64,000 nucleotides of DNA from Escherichia phage vB_EcoM_G17, in the sequence record MK327931.1; one strand, given 5' to 3'. A program made the translations under genes and the position numbers. This document shows positions 1 through 61,709 of the stretch, one piece after another. Each line of letters begins with the position of its first letter. Within the stretch, counting starts at the first letter, position 1. Below the pieces are notes generated by a model. It saw only the letters and a list, made by a program, of their open reading frames with translations. It had not been told where the DNA came from and ran no database searches.

Positions 1-170
1 ACTGCTAGAGTATAAAGAAGTAATTCATACATGTCGTAACTTGTTACATTACCATTTGGTGCAATTACATCAACACTAACACCGTGCATTTTTACTTCTG
101 TATTAAATCCATCTTTATCAGAAAGAAAATCAGTGATTTGCTTTGTAAGGATTTTAATTTGGTCTATCAT
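1..170 (-). CDS. hypothetical protein, N-terminal part only (gene runs off window start)
   Basis: ATG at 168-170 on minus strand preceded by AAGGAA Shine-Dalgarno; frame stays open to position 1; below ORF-track threshold. Confidence 0.35.
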   Translation of the reverse strand, partial: MIDQIKILTKQITDFLSDKDGFNTEVKMHGVSVDVIAPNGNVTSYDMYELLLYTLA

Positions 171-193
171 ATTTCATTTCCTTATGTGATAAA

Positions 194-212
194 AGCCTCC
201 ATAATGGAGGCT
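194..212. terminator. intergenic hairpin (agcctcc-ataat-ggaggct) with flanking T-run
   Basis: perfect 7-bp inverted repeat between two minus-strand genes. Confidence 0.4.
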
Positions 213-223
213 TTTGTATTTAC

Positions 224-805
224 TTAGAGAGATTCTTCGTATTCAGCAACAATCTCAACCATTTCATTAATGAACTTGATGTGAGAATGTGTCACTGTAC
301 GGAAGTCGTAAACAAGTGACTGTTGGAAAAATACATCTTCATCAAGAGAACCATCAAAGTTCAAATCAATGTTTTCATCGTCATTGCTTGGTGCAACTTT
401 AATATTCAGAAGATTTTCATCAATGAACTTGATGTGAGAATGTGTCACTGTACGGAAGTCGTAAACAAGTGACTGTTGGAAAAATACATCTTCATCAAGA
501 GAACCATCAAAGTTCAAATCAATGTTTTCATCGTCATTGCTTGGTGCAACTTTAATATTCAGAAGATTTTCATCAACTGCAAGTTTTACAACACAACCCA
601 GTGCAATGGCAAGAACATATGCTGGTTTCTTAGCTTTTTCATTACGGAATGGTGCACGTAGAGCACAAAAAGTACTGCTAATCTCATCATTTGGTTCTTT
701 GTATTTAACATTGACCATTAGTTCTTCGATTTTGACGCTCTCAATAACACGACCAGTTTCTGGAGCGAAGAAAGAATGTTCACGGATAGTTTGTTCGATA
801 TTCAT
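224..805 (-). CDS. hypothetical protein containing an exact 51-aa internal tandem duplication
   Basis: 193-aa ORF; residues DENLLNIKVAPSNDDENIDLNFDGSLDEDVFFQQSLVYDFRTVTHSHIKFI occur twice in tandem. Confidence 0.55.
   Translation of the reverse strand: MNIEQTIREHSFFAPETGRVIESVKIEELMVNVKYKEPNDEISSTFCALRAPFRNEKAKKPAYVLAIALGCVVKLAVDENLLNIKVAPSNDDENIDLNFDGSLDEDVFFQQSLVYDFRTVTHSHIKFIDENLLNIKVAPSNDDENIDLNFDGSLDEDVFFQQSLVYDFRTVTHSHIKFINEMVEIVAEYEESL
262..576. repeat. 153-bp direct tandem duplication (about 2 copies, 1 mismatch)
   Basis: sequence 269-421 is identical to 422-574; period 153 nt, in frame with CDS 224-805. Confidence 0.9.
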
Positions 806-808
806 ATA

Positions 809-1003
809 TTATTCCTTATTTAGATTGCTAAAAATACGAAGATTGCGGTTTGCTTTAAACTGTTTCAAATCACCAAATCTATCATCAACGATGAAAGTTG
901 CTGATTTCTTTGACTGACATATTGTACAAATCAACATACCTTGTATTGTATACTCAGTTGAGCAATTTGTACAGTACTTTTTTTCATAAAGTTCAGTACT
1001 CAT
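809..1003 (-). CDS. small Cys-rich (zinc-ribbon-like) protein
   Basis: 64-aa ORF with CxxC...CxxC spacing. Confidence 0.45.
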   Translation of the reverse strand: MSTELYEKKYCTNCSTEYTIQGMLICTICQSKKSATFIVDDRFGDLKQFKANRNLRIFSNLNKE

Positions 1004-1335
1004 AAAACCTTCACATCAGTACGTTTTTCTCTTTGTTCTTTTTTAACCTCATCAGTTCTAGTATCTTCTAATTGTAACACAACTTCTTTTAGAATGTCAA
1101 CATCAATTGTTGCTTCTACATATTGATAGTCGTTTACACCAAAAACATACTTTACTGCAACCCATACACGGTTATACCATTTTAAAAAAGGATTTAAACG
1201 CATACTTATCAGACATTGACCAAGTTTATCATCTCCATATTCCTCTGTCAAGTCAAATTGTGCAATGTGAACGCAATGCTCCATTTTATCGCCACAAGAA
1301 CAACGTAAAATATACTCTTTACTATCTTCACTCAT
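1000..1335 (-). CDS. hypothetical protein
   Basis: 111-aa ORF, tightly packed with neighbours (start/stop overlap). Confidence 0.5.
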   Translation of the reverse strand: MSEDSKEYILRCSCGDKMEHCVHIAQFDLTEEYGDDKLGQCLISMRLNPFLKWYNRVWVAVKYVFGVNDYQYVEATIDVDILKEVVLQLEDTRTDEVKKEQREKRTDVKVL

Positions 1336-1754
1336 ACTGGATAAGCCTTTAAAAATTGTTTAAGAACTCCAAACTTAGATGAATCGTAATCGTATTGATA
1401 GTTAAGCTCTCGCTTATCATTCATACGATACACCATATGAAAATTTGGATAACCAATTCTAACAGGTTTTTTAGGATTAGCAAGTAAAATTGCCCATTCT
1501 TTTACTGGAAATACGTTTTCAGTCAGCATTTTGATATTTGTTTCAAAATACTTCATGGCTTGCTTTCCGTGTTTGTAATCTTCTTCACTAATCTCTTGAC
1601 AATCAATTCTATGTGTTTCGGTATCTAACACCCATTGTTGATCTTCGGTATATAAATCAATTACATCATCAATAGTATAACTATCAGGTAAATCATAAAA
1701 TACCCAATGAGATAAACCAGAACTTACACCAATTCGAATTTTAAAGAACTTCAT
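1332..1754 (-). CDS. hypothetical protein
   Basis: 140-aa ORF, overlapping-stop packing typical of phage operons. Confidence 0.5.
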   Translation of the reverse strand: MKFFKIRIGVSSGLSHWVFYDLPDSYTIDDVIDLYTEDQQWVLDTETHRIDCQEISEEDYKHGKQAMKYFETNIKMLTENVFPVKEWAILLANPKKPVRIGYPNFHMVYRMNDKRELNYQYDYDSSKFGVLKQFLKAYPV

Positions 1755-1987
1755 TCTTTATCACCTTTTACATAATTATAACACACGACACAGTGAATTA
1801 CAAGAAGAATTATTTCCACAATGTTAAGAGACAATACATGACTCTGCGGTGTGAAAAGTGCCAATAACAACATTATAGCAGGTATTGTGAATATTTTCCA
1901 AGTTTTTTTCATTTTATTCCTTTGTATATGCATATGGTAAAAATAAAACCTCTGCATTAGGAATGCATTGTGCCAATCCTTCAACAA
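1751..1987 (-). CDS. small membrane protein
   Basis: 78-aa ORF with two hydrophobic segments. Confidence 0.4.
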   Translation of the reverse strand: MLKDWHNAFLMQRFYFYHMHIQRNKMKKTWKIFTIPAIMLLLALFTPQSHVLSLNIVEIILLVIHCVVCYNYVKGDKE

Positions 1988-2400
1988 TAGATTTGTTTTA
2001 TTACATTGCCAAACTTAGTAATTTTATGTCTAAATACTTTTTTATCAACGACAATCCAGTACATGTCCATTTTAACAGTACTGTTATCAGATGGTGTTAG
2101 TAAAGTATCGATGTCATATGTATCAAAGATTTGTCGTTCATATAATCTCCTAATAAAATATTCTCGATTCTCTCTTATATACCCAGATACACAGTTAGTT
2201 GTGGCTTGGTTAGTGAATGAAATCTCACTATTGGACACGCCATTTGCATCACACAAAGGACATATTCCCATGTACTTGGGGGTCGGGTAGGTGTCCAATT
2301 TGTATTTTTCATTACACACCATGTACTGCTGTGGCAATACATCTAATATTATTTCATATTCTTCATCAAACACCTTGAAGCATACCCAACATTTACCCAT
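1981..2400 (-). CDS. hypothetical Cys-containing protein
   Basis: 139-aa ORF. Confidence 0.5.
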   Translation of the reverse strand: MGKCWVCFKVFDEEYEIILDVLPQQYMVCNEKYKLDTYPTPKYMGICPLCDANGVSNSEISFTNQATTNCVSGYIRENREYFIRRLYERQIFDTYDIDTLLTPSDNSTVKMDMYWIVVDKKVFRHKITKFGNVIKQIYC

Positions 2401-2883
2401 TATAGTTTTCCTTTAACACCGTTCTTATATATTCGAATGTTTTAACAAACCAATCATGTTCGTCGGATACATCTACAACTTTACCACCATATACATAGTA
2501 ATGGTAAAAAGGTAACTTGCTTTTTCTTAATCTTTCGGCTAACTCTGGATTTTGAATTATCTTAGCACAAATAGCATCTTGAATAATAGAAATACAATCA
2601 TCCGTCATTTCAATTCGATCATGCATATATTGTTAGCGGCTGCTTTTGCTGCTGCACCAGATACTTTTCTAAGGTCATCATGTTTTTGCCCAGTTAAAAA
2701 CCAAAAGTAAAATGTTTCAACTGAAGGGAACCAACCATATGGTTCAAGTGTGAAGCTATGTGAAGAAAAGTTAGATAGATCTCTACCTAACTTAGTTCTA
2801 GCTTTACTATAAATGTTAATGTGTCGGTATCCATCATCAGTAGGGTCAATAAAGTCAAATGACTCTTCTGGAAACTCAAACAT
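2393..2883 (-). pseudogene. NADAR (YbiA-like) domain gene split into two overlapping ORFs by a frameshift
   Basis: ORF 2605-2883 matches the YbiA N-terminal motifs (LSNF...PYGWFPSVETFYFWF; compare E. coli YbiA FSNF...WPTSEHYFQAQKF); ORF 2393-2626 carries the AKIIQNPELAERL block (compare AKFEQHAELRALL); frames differ, stop at 2633-2635. Confidence 0.55.
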
Positions 2884-2885
2884 AA

Positions 2886-3122
2886 TTATTCTTCTTCTCC
2901 TGAAGGAGTTCCACGTAGTTTGTCAAAATCAACCCAAATACCATGCTGATTTTTAAATCTACATTTCTCATAGTACCAGCTATAGTCAGTTTCAACACCT
3001 TGTGATATAGATCTAACACTACAATCATACATATTATATAAATGATCCCTGACAATATACGTATTAATCAGAATAACAAACAATACAATAATACCACAGA
3101 CTTTAGGATGATCCATAATCAA
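2886..3122 (-). CDS. hypothetical protein with N-terminal hydrophobic segment
   Basis: 78-aa ORF. Confidence 0.4.
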   Translation of the reverse strand: MIMDHPKVCGIIVLFVILINTYIVRDHLYNMYDCSVRSISQGVETDYSWYYEKCRFKNQHGIWVDFDKLRGTPSGEEE

Positions 3123-3243
3123 ATCTAGAACGGAACTCGTTTCAGTACTGTCAATTTACTACGACCGATGGCAACAGCTTTCAGTACTGCTAATGATACC
3201 AGTAATGAAATAACAAGAACACTCAAATAAATTAGCATAATTA

Positions 3244-3821
3244 GACTCCTACACCAAAACGTAAAAGGATGTTATTAACAAACACAAAATCAAATGGAGA
3301 CTTTGGTTCAGATACCGAGTACTGAAAAGTTTCAGCGGAGAAACTTTCCCTATTGTGCCATGTTGATGAATCGATTAGTAATTGTTTATCACCAATTGAC
3401 GTTGAATGTAATGGAAAGTGTGCTGATGAATTTATGGAATACGCATTTAGTTTTCCTTGTTCATCTAATGTGATACTAAGATAATATTTTTTCTCAATAT
3501 CAGGAATAAGTTCTTTTGTATACGAATAGATTGAATCAACCCATTCATCATGTACATTTTCTGCACCAATCAGGTGTCCGAATGATAAATTACGTTTAAC
3601 TGGCTTTGATCCTGGTCGAGTTAGAATGAATTGTTTTGTTAAGTAAAAATTATTATGTTTACTTCAATATTAACATTTTTAAAATTCACAACTTTATCAT
3701 ATACATTTCGAAAAACTGTTATATCCCAAGTACTAATTTCATCCATAATACTTATCACCAGTTCTTCTAGTTCTTGGATAAATGGCAAATCATCCTGATG
3801 AAATCTAGTCATGGTTTTCAT
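3244..3821 (-). pseudogene. hypothetical gene apparently interrupted by a frameshift near 3640-3665
   Basis: 60-aa ORF 3639-3821 is followed by a 140-codon open frame (3244-3663) with no ATG/GTG/TTG start; an A5 run lies at the junction. Confidence 0.35.
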
Positions 3822-11362: not shown

Positions 11363-11427
11363 ATTTTATATTATCCTTAAAAACTAGCACATATAATACT
11401 ATTTACTACTTTTAAAATACAACAAAA

Positions 11428-13722: not shown

Positions 13723-14067
13723 TTACTCCTGATCTTTGGTTCTAGCTCGACGTGGTGCTTTCTTCTCTTCAGAAACCTCAGCTTCTTGTTCTTCGGGCTT
13801 AACTTCAAAACTCTCATCATCCCATACTTCATCCGTACCATGTTCAGTACTATGAAGTTGATGTTCAGGGATATAATCAGGAATTTGCATTTCTCGTTCT
13901 TTTTCTTGAATCAACTCTTCACGAGTTTTAATAATTGTTCCACCTGAACCGATTTTATCACCACGTGCGTTTAAATTAGCATTACCTAATGCTACCTGAT
14001 GTTGATTTTGGTACTTGAGCATATCCATGTCAATTGTTGTACCACGATAAGTTGTATGTTTAGACAT
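13723..14067 (-). CDS. hypothetical acidic protein
   Basis: 114-aa ORF. Confidence 0.5.
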   Translation of the reverse strand: MSKHTTYRGTTIDMDMLKYQNQHQVALGNANLNARGDKIGSGGTIIKTREELIQEKEREMQIPDYIPEHQLHSTEHGTDEVWDDESFEVKPEEQEAEVSEEKKAPRRARTKDQE

Positions 14068-14112: not shown

Positions 14113-14145
14113 ATTATATCACATGTTTTTCTACCATTTCAAAAA
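14113..14145 (-). promoter_or_regulatory. early promoter with extended -10 (TGTGATATAAT)
   Basis: minus-strand TGnTATAAT at 14113-14123, upstream of the start at 14067. Confidence 0.45.
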
Positions 14146-14649
14146 TTCGTTAACATCAAGTTCATACTTCAATGAATCTACCATATGTAGTCCAATCAAA
14201 AACAAACAGTATGATGCAACAGAGCTTCCACGACCTAGACCCCAAAAGATCTCATTTTCTTCCATATAATCAACAAGCCATATCATACATCTTAGTAGCT
14301 TTGTCATATTATAATATTCATATAAATCAAGTTCATACTCAACACGTTTTCGTGCTTCATCGGATGTGCATTTTTGTAAGAAAAAGTCACGCAGATTTAT
14401 ATTGTCGTATACTGGATCATATCGCCACAGTTCATGATTTTTATCATGCTCAATTGTATAATCCAGCATACGTTGTTCTAAGCCAAATTTTTTACAGTTA
14501 TCATTGAATTTCAACCTTTCAGGTTCATCAATTTCCTGCAATTGTAAGTACTGGATATCTGCACCGCAATTGATTGCATAAACAACTGCGTTAAGATTAC
14601 ATTTCACATCACCATTGGGACTTATAAATCTGTTTCCTTGTACTTTCAT
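14131..14649 (-). CDS. small protein homologous to the region of DNA polymerase III alpha (DnaE) just before the catalytic aspartates
   Basis: C-terminal FWGLGRGSSVASYCLFLIGLHMVDSLKYELDVNEFL aligns with E. coli DnaE [35 protein letters not shown]; preceding YELDLYEYYNMTKLL matches ELQVINQMGFPGYFL; the ORF stops before the PDFDVDF catalytic motif. Confidence 0.5.
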   Translation of the reverse strand: MKVQGNRFISPNGDVKCNLNAVVYAINCGADIQYLQLQEIDEPERLKFNDNCKKFGLEQRMLDYTIEHDKNHELWRYDPVYDNINLRDFFLQKCTSDEARKRVEYELDLYEYYNMTKLLRCMIWLVDYMEENEIFWGLGRGSSVASYCLFLIGLHMVDSLKYELDVNEFLKW

Positions 14650-17353: not shown

Positions 17354-17361
17354 TATTTATA
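17354..17361 (-). promoter_or_regulatory. T4-type late promoter box TATAAATA
   Basis: exact TATAAATA on the minus strand immediately upstream of the 800-aa ORF. Confidence 0.55.
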
Positions 17362-17371
17362 TAAAGGACAA

Positions 17372-17392
17372 GGAAGACCCATAAGGTCTTCC
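17372..17392 (-). terminator. hairpin downstream of gp52 (ggaagacc-cataa-ggtcttcc)
   Basis: perfect 8-bp stem. Confidence 0.4.
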
Positions 17393-21721: not shown

Positions 21722-23886
<2,165 letters not shown>

Positions 23887-23898
23887 TAAGTCTATATT

Positions 23899-25005: not shown

Positions 25006-25038
25006 ATTATAGGATAGAACATTAGTTCTGTCAAGCAC
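25006..25038 (-). promoter_or_regulatory. early promoter (-10 TATAAT)
   Basis: minus-strand TATAAT at 25006-25011, about 40 nt upstream of the IF3 start. Confidence 0.4.
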
Positions 25039-25225
25039 TATCATTGTGTTTTTTAATTGCTTCACAGATTGCTTGAACTTGAACAAGATAAGTTTTTGCA
25101 AATTCTGCTTGGGTTCGCACACGGGGGTTCGGTGCGTCTTTGATCATAAGTTCTAGGTCATAAACTACCTTATCAAAAACTCCCTTGTCTTCAATAATAC
25201 GATCATAAAATGTTTTGTCAGTCAT
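25031..25225 (-). CDS. hypothetical protein
   Basis: 64-aa ORF. Confidence 0.4.
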   Translation of the reverse strand: MTDKTFYDRIIEDKGVFDKVVYDLELMIKDAPNPRVRTQAEFAKTYLVQVQAICEAIKKHNDSA

Positions 25226-25248
25226 GTCAAGAACTCCATGTTATAAAA

Positions 25249-25839: not shown

Positions 25840-25898
25840 AACACTTTTGATTATTTATTATTAAAAATCAAAAATATTTACGTATAACATTTAGTCTT

Positions 25899-28657: not shown

Positions 28658-30060
<1,403 letters not shown>

Positions 30061-38226: not shown

Positions 38227-38234
38227 TCATTTAT

Positions 38235-38906
38235 TTACTTTATATAACCTTCGCCTTTTAGAAAGTTTAATACACGCTCTTTTAATTTATACGCTTCAGC
38301 TTTCTTTTCTGCAATAATTATATCTAAATCTTTTGCTTCATCATACTTCGATTCATTAAGTACGCGTTGACGTTTCTGGGCTGCTTTCAATGCTTCACTA
38401 ATCACATTCGTGTATTGAAGACCCGAACTGATTATACCAAGTACTTTTGCATCTGTCAACATTCTTCCTTCATTAAGAAGATTAACTAATGTAAGTGCTG
38501 CTTCATACATCATAATATTATTCATGATAATTTGTGAACTATGATTACACTTAATGCTATAAACTTTAGTAGATTTAGTACCTTGTACTTTTTCTTCCAC
38601 TAAACTCCAATTAGTTTTTGGTTTAAGAGGTGCTTGTGATGGTCGTGGCGAAGGTACTGGTGAATTCCCTGATAAATGTTCATTATACGGAGAATTGTAT
38701 TGAACCATATGTGGATGTTGTGGTTCACCATAATCCATACCTGCTTCATTTAATGAAGTTAAAATAGAAGCCATAGCACCGATATCACCACCAGTTTTAT
38801 ATGGAACCCCCGATGCGTTATGTGTTTCACCAGCTTCAATGTCATTCAATCCACTTAACAAATCAGCCATCTGATTAACTGATTGTTGATCATATTCGTA
38901 ATTCAT
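38235..38906 (-). CDS. hypothetical protein
   Basis: 223-aa ORF. Confidence 0.5.
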   Translation of the reverse strand: MNYEYDQQSVNQMADLLSGLNDIEAGETHNASGVPYKTGGDIGAMASILTSLNEAGMDYGEPQHPHMVQYNSPYNEHLSGNSPVPSPRPSQAPLKPKTNWSLVEEKVQGTKSTKVYSIKCNHSSQIIMNNIMMYEAALTLVNLLNEGRMLTDAKVLGIISSGLQYTNVISEALKAAQKRQRVLNESKYDEAKDLDIIIAEKKAEAYKLKERVLNFLKGEGYIK

Positions 38907-39121: not shown

Positions 39122-40119
39122 TAACGACCTCGCATACGATGACAGAAATCGATAATTTGGTCTACCATGTCATCATTATCAGATTGTGATGTGTTTGCCA
39201 TAACACTTTCATCACCATAGATATCATCTTCTTTTTCAATATCAGAAATTGCATGTATCATTTCGCCCATACCAGGTGCGTGATGTGACAATGGTGATGG
39301 TGTATCAGGATTACTATCAGGCTCTAAACTGGAATTAGCCATAAGTTCACTGTTAATTTCTTGTGGAGATTTTTCTTCACGAATTGGATTATTTTGATTA
39401 TCAATAGGATTAACATCACTCAAAGGAAAAACGTTCAACTCATTTGGCTTAGTCCCACTTTTAGTAATAACTAATGATTGCTCCGGTGTTTGTCCTGGGT
39501 CAACACCAACTACAGGTTCAACCGAATCTGTCCCGCTTTGTGTACCAGGAACACTAACTTTCATATTATTAGCATTTCTTTGCAACTCAGCTTGTTTCAT
39601 TTTAGCTTGAGTTTGTGGATTGACTTGTTGTTGACCCTGAGAAACATTCATTTTAGCAATTTGTTTTGCTTGCATTTGTGTGGCTTGATTTTGTAAATCT
39701 TCAAATACAATTGCTTTTAATTCTTGTGTGGTTAGTTTTGTTATATCTGAATATGTATAATTTTTATGATACTCTTCTGCTAATTGCTTTAGTGACATTG
39801 AATCAACAATACTATGAAGTTCAGTGCTTTCATTAATATGTTTGTTAACATTTTTAGTACTAAAATAATTATAACATTCACTCATCTGTGCTTTGTATTT
39901 TTGTAAAATTTGGAATATTTCACGATTGTCAGAATTATCAATCGCAGAATTTAAAGTGATAAAATCACCTGCATCCATATTATCAAGAATAACAGAAACA
40001 TCAACATTCAAATTATGTGCATCTGCGAACTTTTGAAGTTCAGTTGCTGTTTGGTTTATATCCATAATTTCTCCATATAAAATAAAAAGACCTCTGTCTT
40101 GCTTTATGATATTTATCAC
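39121..40119 (-). CDS. hypothetical Gln/Asn-rich protein
   Basis: 332-aa ORF. Confidence 0.5.
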   Translation of the reverse strand: MINIIKQDRGLFILYGEIMDINQTATELQKFADAHNLNVDVSVILDNMDAGDFITLNSAIDNSDNREIFQILQKYKAQMSECYNYFSTKNVNKHINESTELHSIVDSMSLKQLAEEYHKNYTYSDITKLTTQELKAIVFEDLQNQATQMQAKQIAKMNVSQGQQQVNPQTQAKMKQAELQRNANNMKVSVPGTQSGTDSVEPVVGVDPGQTPEQSLVITKSGTKPNELNVFPLSDVNPIDNQNNPIREEKSPQEINSELMANSSLEPDSNPDTPSPLSHHAPGMGEMIHAISDIEKEDDIYGDESVMANTSQSDNDDMVDQIIDFCHRMRGR

Positions 40120-44584: not shown

Positions 44585-44608
44585 AGTTTTTCCTTCCATA
44601 AATAATAG

Positions 44609-44622
44609 GTATAAATTTATAC
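44609..44622. promoter_or_regulatory. palindromic late-promoter-like element GTATAAATTTATAC (TATAAATT on both strands)
   Basis: perfect 14-nt palindrome between divergent genes; 7/8 match to TATAAATA in each direction. Confidence 0.4.
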
Positions 44623-44641
44623 TAATATTTATGGAACTAAT

Positions 44642-48467: not shown

Positions 48468-49940
48468 GTTTTCCCAATCTTTAACATCTATTATACTATG
48501 AGGATATTGTGCTTCCTTATAGTAAGCTAAACGTTCTCGTAAATGCTTAGCACTATACTTATTAGAACCACTAATATCATATATTTCTACGTGGTCTTTA
48601 TCTTCTGCTCGGCGTAATCCACGTCCAATTGACTGTATAGTTCTTACAAAACTTTTTCCTGGCTCAATCAATACTACATTATATAACCTTGAAATACTAA
48701 TACCAGTACTGGCAACGCCGTATGTCGCAATAAGTATTTTATTATCAGCCCAACGAATTTCACCATAAGATGATTCTCGATCTTTCTTTTTAGTTTCTCC
48801 ACGAACGAATTCTGATTTGGGAATGCCTAAAAATTCACATAGCAACTCACCTGCTTCAAGTCTATCTACTAAAACTAAAGTGTTTCCTGATTCAGATAAC
48901 GCAGATATCAATGACGCTACATATGCCATCCTATCTCTGTCAGTTACTAAGTATTTCAACTCTTCAGCATATGATGCAAACTTCATACTACTTTTTAGTT
49001 TGATGCAATTCACATTACATGTACTTAGTATTTGTTTATCTTGTAATTCCTTTGCAGTTATTTTAAATATAACATCACCAACATTACATTTGATTTTCGC
49101 GGCAACTACCGGATCTTTAGGAATTGTTCCAGTAAGACCCCAACGTAATGGTACGTTATTCATAACTTTAGAAAGTACTTGAACTAATGCGTCACCGCCT
49201 GCACCTTGACACTCATCAACGATAACACAAACTACTCCATCGATAAAATCATTCACGTCTTGTTCAGTTAATTCAATTTCACCTTTCTTGGTTTTCTTCC
49301 ATAGAGAGTTAAATGATTGCCAAGTCGTAATAGTATGTTGGTGACCAAAATCTTTTTGTGAACCATAGAACATGCCAGTATCCAACCCACACATAATGTA
49401 GTCATCATATGTTTGTTGTACTAAGTCAGTACTTGGTACTATTATAACAGAACGTCCATACTCTTGCACTTTCTTTGACAATGCAGCAGTAATGAGAGTT
49501 TTACCTGCACCAGTAGCTGCCAATAGCAGTCCGTGTGGATTAGCCAAACATGCATTAACCGCATTAACTTGATGTTCACGTAGTTTTATGGATTTACCTT
49601 CCATGTGGTGTCCTGCACCGAATACAACATCACTAAAAATATCTTCATCAATGGGGTCAAATTTAAATCCATAATCTACCCTATGATCTACTAATTCAAT
49701 GTCAATCTTAGCTTCATCAAGAATAGGCAATAACTTATCTAACATATGATAATAAGTTGTTCCGCCTAAATTCATAAACTGAACTTTACCATCCCAACGT
49801 CCAATACGTCCTGCTGGTGTGAACTTTGCATATGGTAACACATATTCAGTTGCACGAATCATCTTTTGTCTAATTGAGGGATCAAGTCCCTCAAATTTAC
49901 AATTCACCTCATCCAATAAGGTTAACTTACAAGTTTTCAT
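48456..49940 (-). CDS. uvsW: UvsW-like SF2 helicase
   Basis: Walker A ATGAGKT, Walker B IVDECQ, helicase C-terminal motifs; 494 aa. Confidence 0.8.
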   Translation of the reverse strand: MKTCKLTLLDEVNCKFEGLDPSIRQKMIRATEYVLPYAKFTPAGRIGRWDGKVQFMNLGGTTYYHMLDKLLPILDEAKIDIELVDHRVDYGFKFDPIDEDIFSDVVFGAGHHMEGKSIKLREHQVNAVNACLANPHGLLLAATGAGKTLITAALSKKVQEYGRSVIIVPSTDLVQQTYDDYIMCGLDTGMFYGSQKDFGHQHTITTWQSFNSLWKKTKKGEIELTEQDVNDFIDGVVCVIVDECQGAGGDALVQVLSKVMNNVPLRWGLTGTIPKDPVVAAKIKCNVGDVIFKITAKELQDKQILSTCNVNCIKLKSSMKFASYAEELKYLVTDRDRMAYVASLISALSESGNTLVLVDRLEAGELLCEFLGIPKSEFVRGETKKKDRESSYGEIRWADNKILIATYGVASTGISISRLYNVVLIEPGKSFVRTIQSIGRGLRRAEDKDHVEIYDISGSNKYSAKHLRERLAYYKEAQYPHSIIDVKDWENTAG

Positions 49941-49955
49941 CCATGATTACCTTTA

Positions 49956-50774
49956 TTAATTAGTTCGAGTATTATATTCGTACTCAAATGTATATACTAA
50001 ATCTTTATCACAGTTAGGGTTACTTGCATCTAAAATGTCACTATTAGTAATCATCCATTCAATGTAATTCAATGGAACTGTACTCATTGGCTCACCTTTG
50101 TGTTTACCAAATGGCATGAATTGATAACGCATTGGTGTGTTGCAGAAAGTTACAATTTGCTCACCAATATCACCATTAGGTTCGATATGTCCACGTTCGA
50201 TTGCAATTTCAACTAATTTGATTAGAACCTGATAACACATAAACACATCGTCTTTTGCTGCGTGTGCATTAACAGGTCGATGAACATCACGATAACATCC
50301 AAACTTATACCACAAATAACTTAGAGTTAAGTTTTTAAATTCAATATCTTCTGCGAACATTTTCTTAGCAAGACGAAGGGTACAAATCCATTTATTTTCA
50401 TCAAGTAAGTACTGTGAAATTGAGTTACGATATTTATATTCGTTATCTACCATCATTCTACGGTCAAATTGTACATTATGACCAACAAAATACTTACGGC
50501 ATCCCATAAGTGCATCAATGTTATCTAAATCATCTTTATACCCAACACAATTAGCTACATCCTCAGTACTGATAAAGTGCACAGCAGATGCCTCTGGTGG
50601 AATATCTTTCAAGGGTTTGTATCTCAATGTATAGTTATCAATAGTATCAATGTTTTCATGTGAAGTATGTGGATACGAGATACTAAATTCAATAATATCA
50701 TCTTCACTCTCAACCCCAGTAGTTTCAGTATCTAGAACTGCTACATTTGATAAAAACTCATTTAATTTTGTCAT
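49956..50774 (-). CDS. DEDDh 3'-5' exonuclease (DnaQ/RNase T-like)
   Basis: LDTETTG (exo I), GHNVQFDRRM (exo II), HAAKDDVFMC (exo III). Confidence 0.7.
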   Translation of the reverse strand: MTKLNEFLSNVAVLDTETTGVESEDDIIEFSISYPHTSHENIDTIDNYTLRYKPLKDIPPEASAVHFISTEDVANCVGYKDDLDNIDALMGCRKYFVGHNVQFDRRMMVDNEYKYRNSISQYLLDENKWICTLRLAKKMFAEDIEFKNLTLSYLWYKFGCYRDVHRPVNAHAAKDDVFMCYQVLIKLVEIAIERGHIEPNGDIGEQIVTFCNTPMRYQFMPFGKHKGEPMSTVPLNYIEWMITNSDILDASNPNCDKDLVYTFEYEYNTRTN

Positions 50775-53650: not shown

Positions 53651-58908
<5,258 letters not shown>

Positions 58909-58950: not shown

Positions 58951-59015
58951 TGATAAATAATATCATAGAAATTCATTAAATATCTCAGTAAATTTAAATG
59001 CTAGTGATATTTTTT

Positions 59016-59023
59016 GATAAATA
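59016..59023 (+). promoter_or_regulatory. late-promoter-like box GATAAATA upstream of the plus-strand paralog pair
   Basis: 7/8 match to TATAAATA about 45 nt upstream of the ATG at 59070. Confidence 0.3.
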
Positions 59024-59069
59024 ACTTTAAGCAGGATATACCTGCACAAAATTTGACAAGGAGATTTTC

Positions 59070-61701: not shown

Positions 61702-61709
61702 TATTTATA
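61702..61709 (-). promoter_or_regulatory. T4-type late promoter box TATAAATA
   Basis: exact TATAAATA on the minus strand, overlapping the gp45 stop, upstream of the zinc-ribbon/GroES-like genes. Confidence 0.5.

Follow-up and report, generated by a model that had tools for sequence, protein, structure and literature searches.

The TATAAATA octamer at positions 17354-17361 raises the question of whether late genes of a jumbo coliphage are mixed with its replication genes, and which signal would direct their transcription. In phage T4, the late promoter has TATAAATA at positions −13 to −6, a start site about one helical turn downstream and no conservation at −35 (PMC2988020). It is read by gp55 together with gp33 and the gp45 clamp; position −13 is the most variable one, where most sites have T and 9 of 50 have A (PMC2988020). 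The first-pass annotation of the window (the whole stretch of DNA analyzed here, 64,000 nucleotides) had reported such boxes among replication genes, and had proposed that a palindrome between two divergent genes acts as a bidirectional late promoter. Our main reading is that the boxes are late promoters of a 350-kb Escherichia coli jumbo phage and are read by a gp55-related sigma factor; we assign this reading a probability of roughly 0.8.

The window is part of the genome of an Asteriusvirus jumbo coliphage (Sharanji/PBECO4/121Q group). In the two stretches that were compared, it is 99.9-100% identical to the Asteriusvirus coliphages Sharanji, PBECO4, SHEFM2K, 121Q and phAPEC6. Its counterpart in Sharanji (OR545507.1) is positions 111631-175630, and the gene coordinates of Sharanji were used for the window. 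These apply directly outside the first 3.8 kb: within positions 1-3821, a 1-nt indel relative to Sharanji shifts the coordinates of the first 11 genes by 1. Genome-wide tests were performed on the PBECO4 RefSeq genome (NC_027364; 348 kb, 554 CDS), which was assembled around the window and whose CDS coordinates were validated by start codon, stop codon and frame. The non-coding share is 4.3% of the window, and 12.3% of the genome is intergenic.

The window holds a replication and nucleotide-metabolism module (topoisomerase II subunits, clamp loader, primase, helicase, RNR, UvsX, SSB and DNA polymerase), in which many genes with the PHROG-based label "virion structural protein" are interspersed. 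One small gene of this module, gp285 (14131-14649, minus strand, 172 aa), has a single match, the NTPase domain of bacterial DNA polymerase III alpha (PF07733, 1.9e-9). Its sequence fits the split minimal Pol III alpha described for group 2.2 jumbo phages (PMC7824862), and this Pol III alpha-like protein coexists with a family-B polymerase.

Position and abundance of the ATAAATA word

The coordinates in the first-pass annotation were all correct: TATAAATA at 17354-17361 and 61702-61709 (both minus), GTATAAATTTATAC at 44609-44622, and GATAAATA at 55032-55039 (minus) and 59016-59023 (plus). The list was incomplete. It lacked TATAAATA at 28907 (plus) and 50431 (minus), three intergenic GATAAATA copies at 23857 (minus), 40110 (minus) and 58952 (plus), AATAAATA at 25851-25858 (minus), and two CATAAATA boxes that flank the palindrome. 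A genome-wide motif scan had been suggested there as a check. When it was run, the 7-mer ATAAATA proved to be strongly positioned, but TATAAATA was not enriched by its count in the window, where 4 copies are present against 10.7 ± 3.3 expected. Because the exact octamer is under-represented and half of its copies (two of four) lie within genes, it was rejected as the motif. The GATAAATA octamer is present in 5 copies against 6.7 expected. It had been described as a variant of the box; this description does not hold. The base before the 7-mer, which corresponds to T4 position −13, is unconstrained (A11 C5 G8 T11 in 35 sites), and since the first T of the T4 octamer is thus not conserved, the GATAAATA sites are full matches. 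The features found in the window are collected in Table 1.

Table 1. Predicted late promoter boxes, other promoters and associated structures in the window
Feature	Position	Strand	Assignment or basis
GTAAATA, position-1 variant	11400..11406	-	37 nt upstream of gp279 (virion structural); candidate weaker late promoter
TGTGCTATAAT-type promoters (8 intergenic sites)	14121, 31503, 37200, 43589, 48443, 53619, 53695, 58926	- (all)	
TATAAATA box (core ATAAATA 17354-17360)	17354..17361	-	predicted late promoter of gp287 (virion structural; start 17315, 38 nt downstream)
Intrinsic-terminator-like hairpin (GGAAGACC TTAT GGGTCTTCC and T-rich tail)	17372..17392	-	terminator scan and folding
15-bp hairpin enclosing the 23857 box	23833..23887	-	alignment fold; 15 pairs kept in 4 phages
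ATAAATA box (GATAAATA)	23857..23863	-	candidate for gp292, then gp291 and gp290 (virion proteins); in loop of conserved hairpin
ATAAATA box (AATAAATA)	25852..25858	-	36 nt upstream of gp296; exact in TH47, Klebsiella phage and GAP32 (28-36 nt before ATG)
TATAAATA, intragenic in gp301	28907..28914	+	TH47 has TATAAGTA instead
GTAAATA, position-1 variant	38232..38238	-	29 nt upstream of gp314 (virion structural); candidate weaker late promoter
ATAAATA box (GATAAATA)	40110..40116	-	44 nt upstream of gp317 (virion structural); kept in three diverged genomes
ATAAATA box (CATAAATAAT)	44598..44604	+	predicted late promoter of gp324 (start 44642); invariant in 9 phages
Perfect 14-nt palindrome GTATAAATTTATAC	44609..44622		spacer and predicted initiation region between facing boxes
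ATAAATA box (CATAAATATT)	44626..44632	-	predicted late promoter of gp323 (virion structural; start 44584); invariant in 9 phages
TATAAATA, intragenic in exonuclease gene gp332	50431..50438	-	ATAAATA kept in TH47 and Klebsiella phage
ATAAATA box (GATAAATA)	55032..55038	-	29 nt upstream of gp336 (virion structural); overlaps terminase gene stop codon
Distal ATAAATA box (GATAAATA)	58953..58959	+	110 nt upstream of gp341; overlaps upstream region of divergent gp340 middle-type promoter
Proximal ATAAATA box (GATAAATA)	59017..59023	+	46 nt upstream of gp341/gp342 (virion structural); kept in three diverged genomes
TATAAATA box	61702..61709	-	56 nt upstream of gp345 (zinc ribbon), then gp344 (GroES-like) and gp343 (virion); candidate

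In the window, ATAAATA occurs 12 times on both strands, and 10 of these copies lie in or touch the non-coding DNA. Each of these 10 reads toward a gene start, at a distance of 29-56 nt (110 nt for one of them). In the whole genome there are 53 copies on both strands, of which 37 are fully and 5 partly intergenic (42 of 53). When all 10,954 7-mers with at least 15 copies were ranked by placement 5-70 nt upstream of a co-oriented start codon, ATAAATA came first, above the Shine-Dalgarno words: 33 of its 53 copies (62%) are promoter-like, against 1.25% for the median 7-mer. Single-base variants lose this positional bias, except those with C or G at the first position; of the copies of GTAAATA and CTAAATA in the genome, 24% have a promoter-like placement.

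The word is also rare. Its 53 copies compare with 189-329 for 7-mers of the same composition and with 229.5 expected from an order-1 Markov model. The maximal-order Markov expectation is 68, but this test carries no information, since two sub-words, TAAATA and TAAATAA, are depleted too. Within CDS, the sense strand carries 9 copies against about 115 expected and the antisense strand 2 against about 81, a 13- to 40-fold depletion. Depletion on both strands points to a DNA-level signal, stray copies of which are harmful in either orientation, and argues against an mRNA signal. Judged by its placement and its avoidance, the working signal is the 7-mer ATAAATA and not the TATAAATA of T4.

Conservation was examined by locating orthologous start codons with local tblastn in three genomes: TH47 (~87% identity), a Klebsiella Alcyoneusvirus-like phage (~73%) and Cronobacter phage GAP32 (~71%). 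For seven of the nine boxed genes in the window, the exact 7-mer lies 28-53 nt before the orthologous ATG in all three genomes, while the flanking intergenic DNA has diverged; among control upstream regions, 2 of about 45 contain ATAAATA. The word is found at orthologous positions in GAP32, CBB and in Klebsiella, Yersinia, Salmonella and Xanthomonas phages. The box at 17354 is exact in TH47. Ahead of the orthologous ATG, GAP32 carries CATAAATAC at a distance of about 34 nt and the Klebsiella phage the position-1 variant GTAAATA at 27 nt. The boxes at 23857 and 55032 are exact in all three genomes, at 29-30 nt and 29-34 nt before the ATG, respectively. The distal box at 58953 has an orthologous second box in GAP32 (L022 position 4906, minus strand). 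The box at 61702 is the weakest candidate late promoter: of the three genomes, only TH47 keeps it (the GAP32 orthologue has an extra gene there and no box), and the predicted +1 is G instead of A. As for the two intragenic octamers, the one at 28907 was rejected as an internal promoter and is probably a chance copy, not being conserved even in TH47. Conservation of the one at 50431 is uninformative because it lies within conserved codons (x-Lys-Tyr).

Could the boxes act in RNA, where they might direct processing, affect stability or influence translation from the 5′ leader, or be no more than AT-rich intergenic filler? They are strand-specific, their distance from the start codons varies rather little, and several of them adjoin hairpins. 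However, the antisense depletion exceeds the sense depletion, which an mRNA signal would not bring about. Furthermore, AT-rich words of the same composition show no comparable positioning upstream of starts, and the exact 7-mer is conserved while the neighboring AT-rich sequence drifts. We consider this explanation extremely improbable.

The anatomy of the predicted promoter was derived from 35 promoter-like sites genome-wide; the logo was conditioned on the exact 7-mer, so that the box is invariant by construction. Upstream of the box, from −40 to −1 relative to it, information does not exceed 0.27 bit at any position, and no −35 element was found across the 35 sites. Downstream, the sixth base after the box is A in 25 of the 35 sites (0.51 bit). 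Given the geometry of the T4 late promoter (PMC2988020), this enriched A falls at the predicted +1. The five bases between the box and the predicted start are slightly enriched in AT (~71%, against ~66% for the genome). The distance from the box to the ATG ranges from 6 to 64 nt, with a median of 35 nt. For the boxes of the window, the predicted starts lie at about 17348, 23851, 25846, 40104, 44610 (plus), 44620 (minus), 55026, 58965 and 59029 (both plus), and 61696. Compared with the 8-bp late box of T4, seven of the eight positions (−12 to −6) agree.

The gap between gp323 and gp324

The palindrome GTATAAATTTATAC had been read as a bidirectional late promoter that presents TATAAATT to both genes. 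As a functional unit it could alternatively be the operator of a dimeric regulator. It is perfect over 14 nt and is centred between the divergent genes, whose start codons are 24 and 29 nt away. The window contains 10 perfect palindromes of 14 nt or more, so the existence of this one is unremarkable, although it is the only intergenic one among them. Moreover, the word that it contains, ATAAATT, is promoter-like in 8 of 247 copies genome-wide. This is the background level, and the word is not depleted.

We aligned the gp323/gp324 gap from nine phages belonging to at least five genera. Both boxes in the gap, (C/T)ATAAATA on the plus strand and ATAAATA on the minus strand, are invariant in all nine. 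In contrast, the spacer between them (21-25 nt) diverges freely. The palindrome is perfect only in the window and in TH47; JNE01 has a 1-nt insertion that disrupts it, and in Muenster, CBB, Yen9-03, GAP32, 7t3 and XaC1 unrelated sequence takes its place. On the basis of the word statistics and this lack of conservation, the palindrome was rejected as a promoter or operator, and we regard either function as very unlikely.

The gap probably does contain a bidirectional pair of late promoters, formed by the flanking boxes. In this 57-bp gap the two promoters would face each other, and their predicted starts, 44610 (plus) and 44620 (minus), cross. Because the predicted transcripts cross within the palindrome, its symmetry is accounted for without a function of its own. 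Elsewhere in PBECO4 (L010), ATAAATA pairs at 13799 (minus)/13856 (plus) and at 49005 (minus)/49040 (plus) stand back to back in divergent gaps, between a virion gene and the baseplate hub gene and between gp545 and a tail protein gene. In contrast to the gp323/gp324 pair, these do not cross.

Genes preceded by the boxes and the candidate late sigma factor

Genome-wide, a box is present at 21 of the 66 virion-annotated genes and at 13 of the 488 others (OR 17, p = 5e-13), the virion labels being annotation transfers (PHROG/RefSeq) from two different records and not proteomics of this isolate. A virion gene lies within the next three co-directional genes for 29 of the 34 boxed genes, against 133 of all 554 genes. 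The boxed genes include those for the major head protein, tail sheath, tail tube, baseplate hub and wedge, and tail fibres. Isolated virion genes in the early region (182-184 kb and 201 kb) have a box each. No box lies directly upstream of the other 45 virion-annotated genes, which must rely on operon read-through or on variant boxes. In the window, boxes precede the virion genes or operons gp287, gp292-290, gp317, gp323, gp336, gp341/342 and gp345-343. With virion genes dispersed across the replication module, every one of them, or every short operon, has its own box 29-56 nt before the start codon. The earlier claim that late genes are mixed with early ones therefore stands in this form: late-type boxes occur among the replication genes, each before a virion-annotated gene or short operon, as judged by sequence statistics and comparison only.

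The replication genes in the window have a different motif, a GGGACA-, GAGACA- or TGGAAC-like −35 element followed by N12-13 and the extended −10 element TGTGCTATAAT. Sites of this type precede gp284, gp306, gp312, the primase gene gp322, gp330, the SSB gene gp335 (twice) and gp340. They probably represent a middle promoter class, and they resemble the "divergent RpoD-like" motif described for CBB and GAP32. Separately, a perfect 12/12 match to the sigma-70 consensus promoter (TTGACA, 17 nt, TATAAT) lies at 25006-25034 (minus strand), directly upstream of gp294, the gene for a phage-encoded translation initiation factor IF-3. An 11/12 match is located at 25202-25230, upstream of gp295.

Which factor would read the ATAAATA box? 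The annotated late sigma factor is PBECO4 gp530 (279 aa), whose gene lies beyond the window. It matches PHROG 234, the T4 gp55 family, at 8.4e-18; reciprocally, T4 gp55 matches PHROG 12791, the family of this clade, at 4.8e-7. In a pairwise BLASTP comparison the two proteins are 24% identical (E = 2e-4). When a profile of 24 gp530 homologues was compared with the PDB, T4 gp55 (7D7C/7D7D chain F) was the sole significant match (E = 4.7e-8). Only profile methods succeeded with the PDB: a single-sequence phmmer search of it with gp530 gave no match, and a Pfam scan of gp530 also gave none. The gene lies immediately upstream of the gp47 (4e-20) and gp46 (1e-31) homologues (NC_027364 306073-310086; L010 16289-20302), which is the order and orientation of genes 55, 47 and 46 in T4. 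On this evidence, gp530 is homologous to T4 gp55. It differs in having an N-terminal extension of about 120 aa, which T4 gp55 lacks. The homologue profile also bears a weak resemblance to the TFIIS N-terminal domain (PDB 7FAW), which is not significant (E = 0.045).

In the proposed mechanism, the host RNA polymerase core with gp530 would recognize a single −10-type element, ATAAATA, at the positions equivalent to −12 to −6 of T4. No −35 element would be needed, and transcription would start about 6 nt downstream of the box, usually at A. We infer that gp530 reads the box, and the exact start sites and the late timing are predictions as well.

Another sigma factor could use ATAAATA as its −10 element, either the RpoD-like PBECO4 gp356 or host sigma-70. 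Indeed, the phage does encode this second, RpoD-like sigma factor, the box looks like an AT-rich −10 hexamer, and it is only by inference that we pair the box with gp530. However, the box is accompanied by neither a −35 element nor extended −10 conservation, and the separate class with the GGGACA-like −35 and TGTGCTATAAT before the replication genes is the natural client of an RpoD-like sigma factor. Furthermore, the box is seven-eighths identical to the element of T4 gp55, a homologue of which is encoded, and the association with virion genes suits a late factor. Thus, we judge another sigma factor to be an unlikely reader of the box and favor the gp55-related one.

As for the co-factors of T4 late transcription, phmmer searches with T4 gp45, gp62 and gp33 (residues 12-112), which as single-sequence searches are too weak to exclude homologues, gave nothing below E = 0.2 among the 554 proteins. 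A phmmer search of the phage proteome with rpbA gave nothing credible. The clamp-binding LDFL motif of T4 is absent from the gp530 C-terminus. A gp44-like clamp loader is present (3e-22), and gp33 orthologues and PCNA-type clamps have been reported for group-2 jumbo phages by Iyer et al. (PMC7824862).

The predicted promoters share with T4 late promoters a single −10-type box, the absence of a −35 element and a start about 6 nt downstream (predicted, in the present case). In both phages, virion genes of either strand have the box in front of them, and the rest of the genome avoids it. Unlike in T4, position −13 is unconstrained and the late genes are scattered within the replication module. 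A motif of this kind has been described before. In the report on Pectobacterium phage CBB (PMC5259590), MEME detected ATAAATA upstream of structural genes as a "third promoter" of CBB and of Cronobacter phage GAP32; the motif was likened to TATAAATA, and a gp55-like sigma factor was noted. The 7-mer, its inferred role and the RaK2-like clade are the same as those of the window, and individual boxes of the window have orthologous counterparts in GAP32 and CBB. The CBB analysis concerned another genus (Mimasvirus) and did not include depletion statistics, a strand test, orthologous conservation, start-site geometry or the divergent pair. For Asteriusvirus, we found no published promoter analysis, the Sharanji and phAPEC6 papers containing none, and our literature search found no transcriptome or primer-extension data. 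Thus, the ATAAATA late motif had already been predicted in sister phages, and what is corrected here is the consensus and the role of the palindrome, for which the earlier reading was attractive but wrong.

This is not a new kind of system, and our account of it is built entirely from sequence analysis. It provides a usable rule for late genes in the genus, namely ATAAATA 30-50 nt upstream of the start codon. These 350-kb coliphages are therapy candidates in which about 80% of the genes are hypothetical. The comparison also suggests that the logic of T4 late transcription, with a minimal promoter, a gp55-type sigma factor and a promoter within a hairpin for translational timing, reaches a very distant clade of jumbo phages, with a relaxed position −13.

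Hairpins around the boxes

At about 8 of 35 sites, a strong terminator ends 8-14 nt upstream of the box, and other boxes lie in the loop of a hairpin. The terminator-like hairpin at 17372 is located at the end of a gyrA-like gene and finishes 10 nt upstream of the box at 17354. The same order, terminator and then box, is found at gp287 in GAP32 and in the Klebsiella phage. A terminator hairpin just before or around a box would block read-through from the preceding replication gene.

The hairpin of gp292 encloses its box. In the covariation alignments, which comprise four sequences only, this hairpin has one compensatory change (A-U to G-C), and its loop has diverged except for the box. The 3′ arm includes the Shine-Dalgarno sequence GGAG and is followed by a run of seven T. 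The predicted +1 (23851) falls in the loop, so that a transcript starting there would be without the 5′ arm. A likely analogue is the T4 gene e (lysozyme)/I-TevI arrangement, in which a late promoter within a stem-loop that sequesters the ribosome-binding site provides temporal control of translation (PMC3014915). Unlike the T4 hairpins, the gp292 hairpin is followed by the T run, and it could terminate read-through besides masking the ribosome-binding site. The box of gp317 also lies inside a terminator-like hairpin, and a long perfect stem surrounds its GAP32 counterpart. The consensus fold of the gp317 leader from four phages is weak (7 pairs, −3.6 kcal/mol), although the individual sequences fold well.

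A wider reading can be sketched, which we hold to be possible but doubtful. Where the starts cross in the gp323/gp324 gap, the open complexes would be mutually exclusive and the mRNAs would have complementary 5′ ends of about 11 nt. The gap might then act as a competitive or antisense device that fixes the ratio of the virion protein to its divergent partner. On a wider scale, late promoters nested in hairpins that would act as terminators or mask ribosome-binding sites may let virion genes live in the replication module. These may be read by a gp55-type sigma factor that lacks the clamp-binding tail, perhaps without replication coupling of the T4 style.

Downstream of the proximal box of gp341, a 5-bp hairpin, GCAGG...CCTGC (59031-59045, plus strand), begins about 2 nt beyond the predicted start of transcription. 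Four phages share it; its loop varies, two of its pairs show compensatory changes, and it may stabilize the mRNA at its 5′ end. The box at 61702 is likewise followed by a similar hairpin, GGGGAACACTATGTTCCCC.
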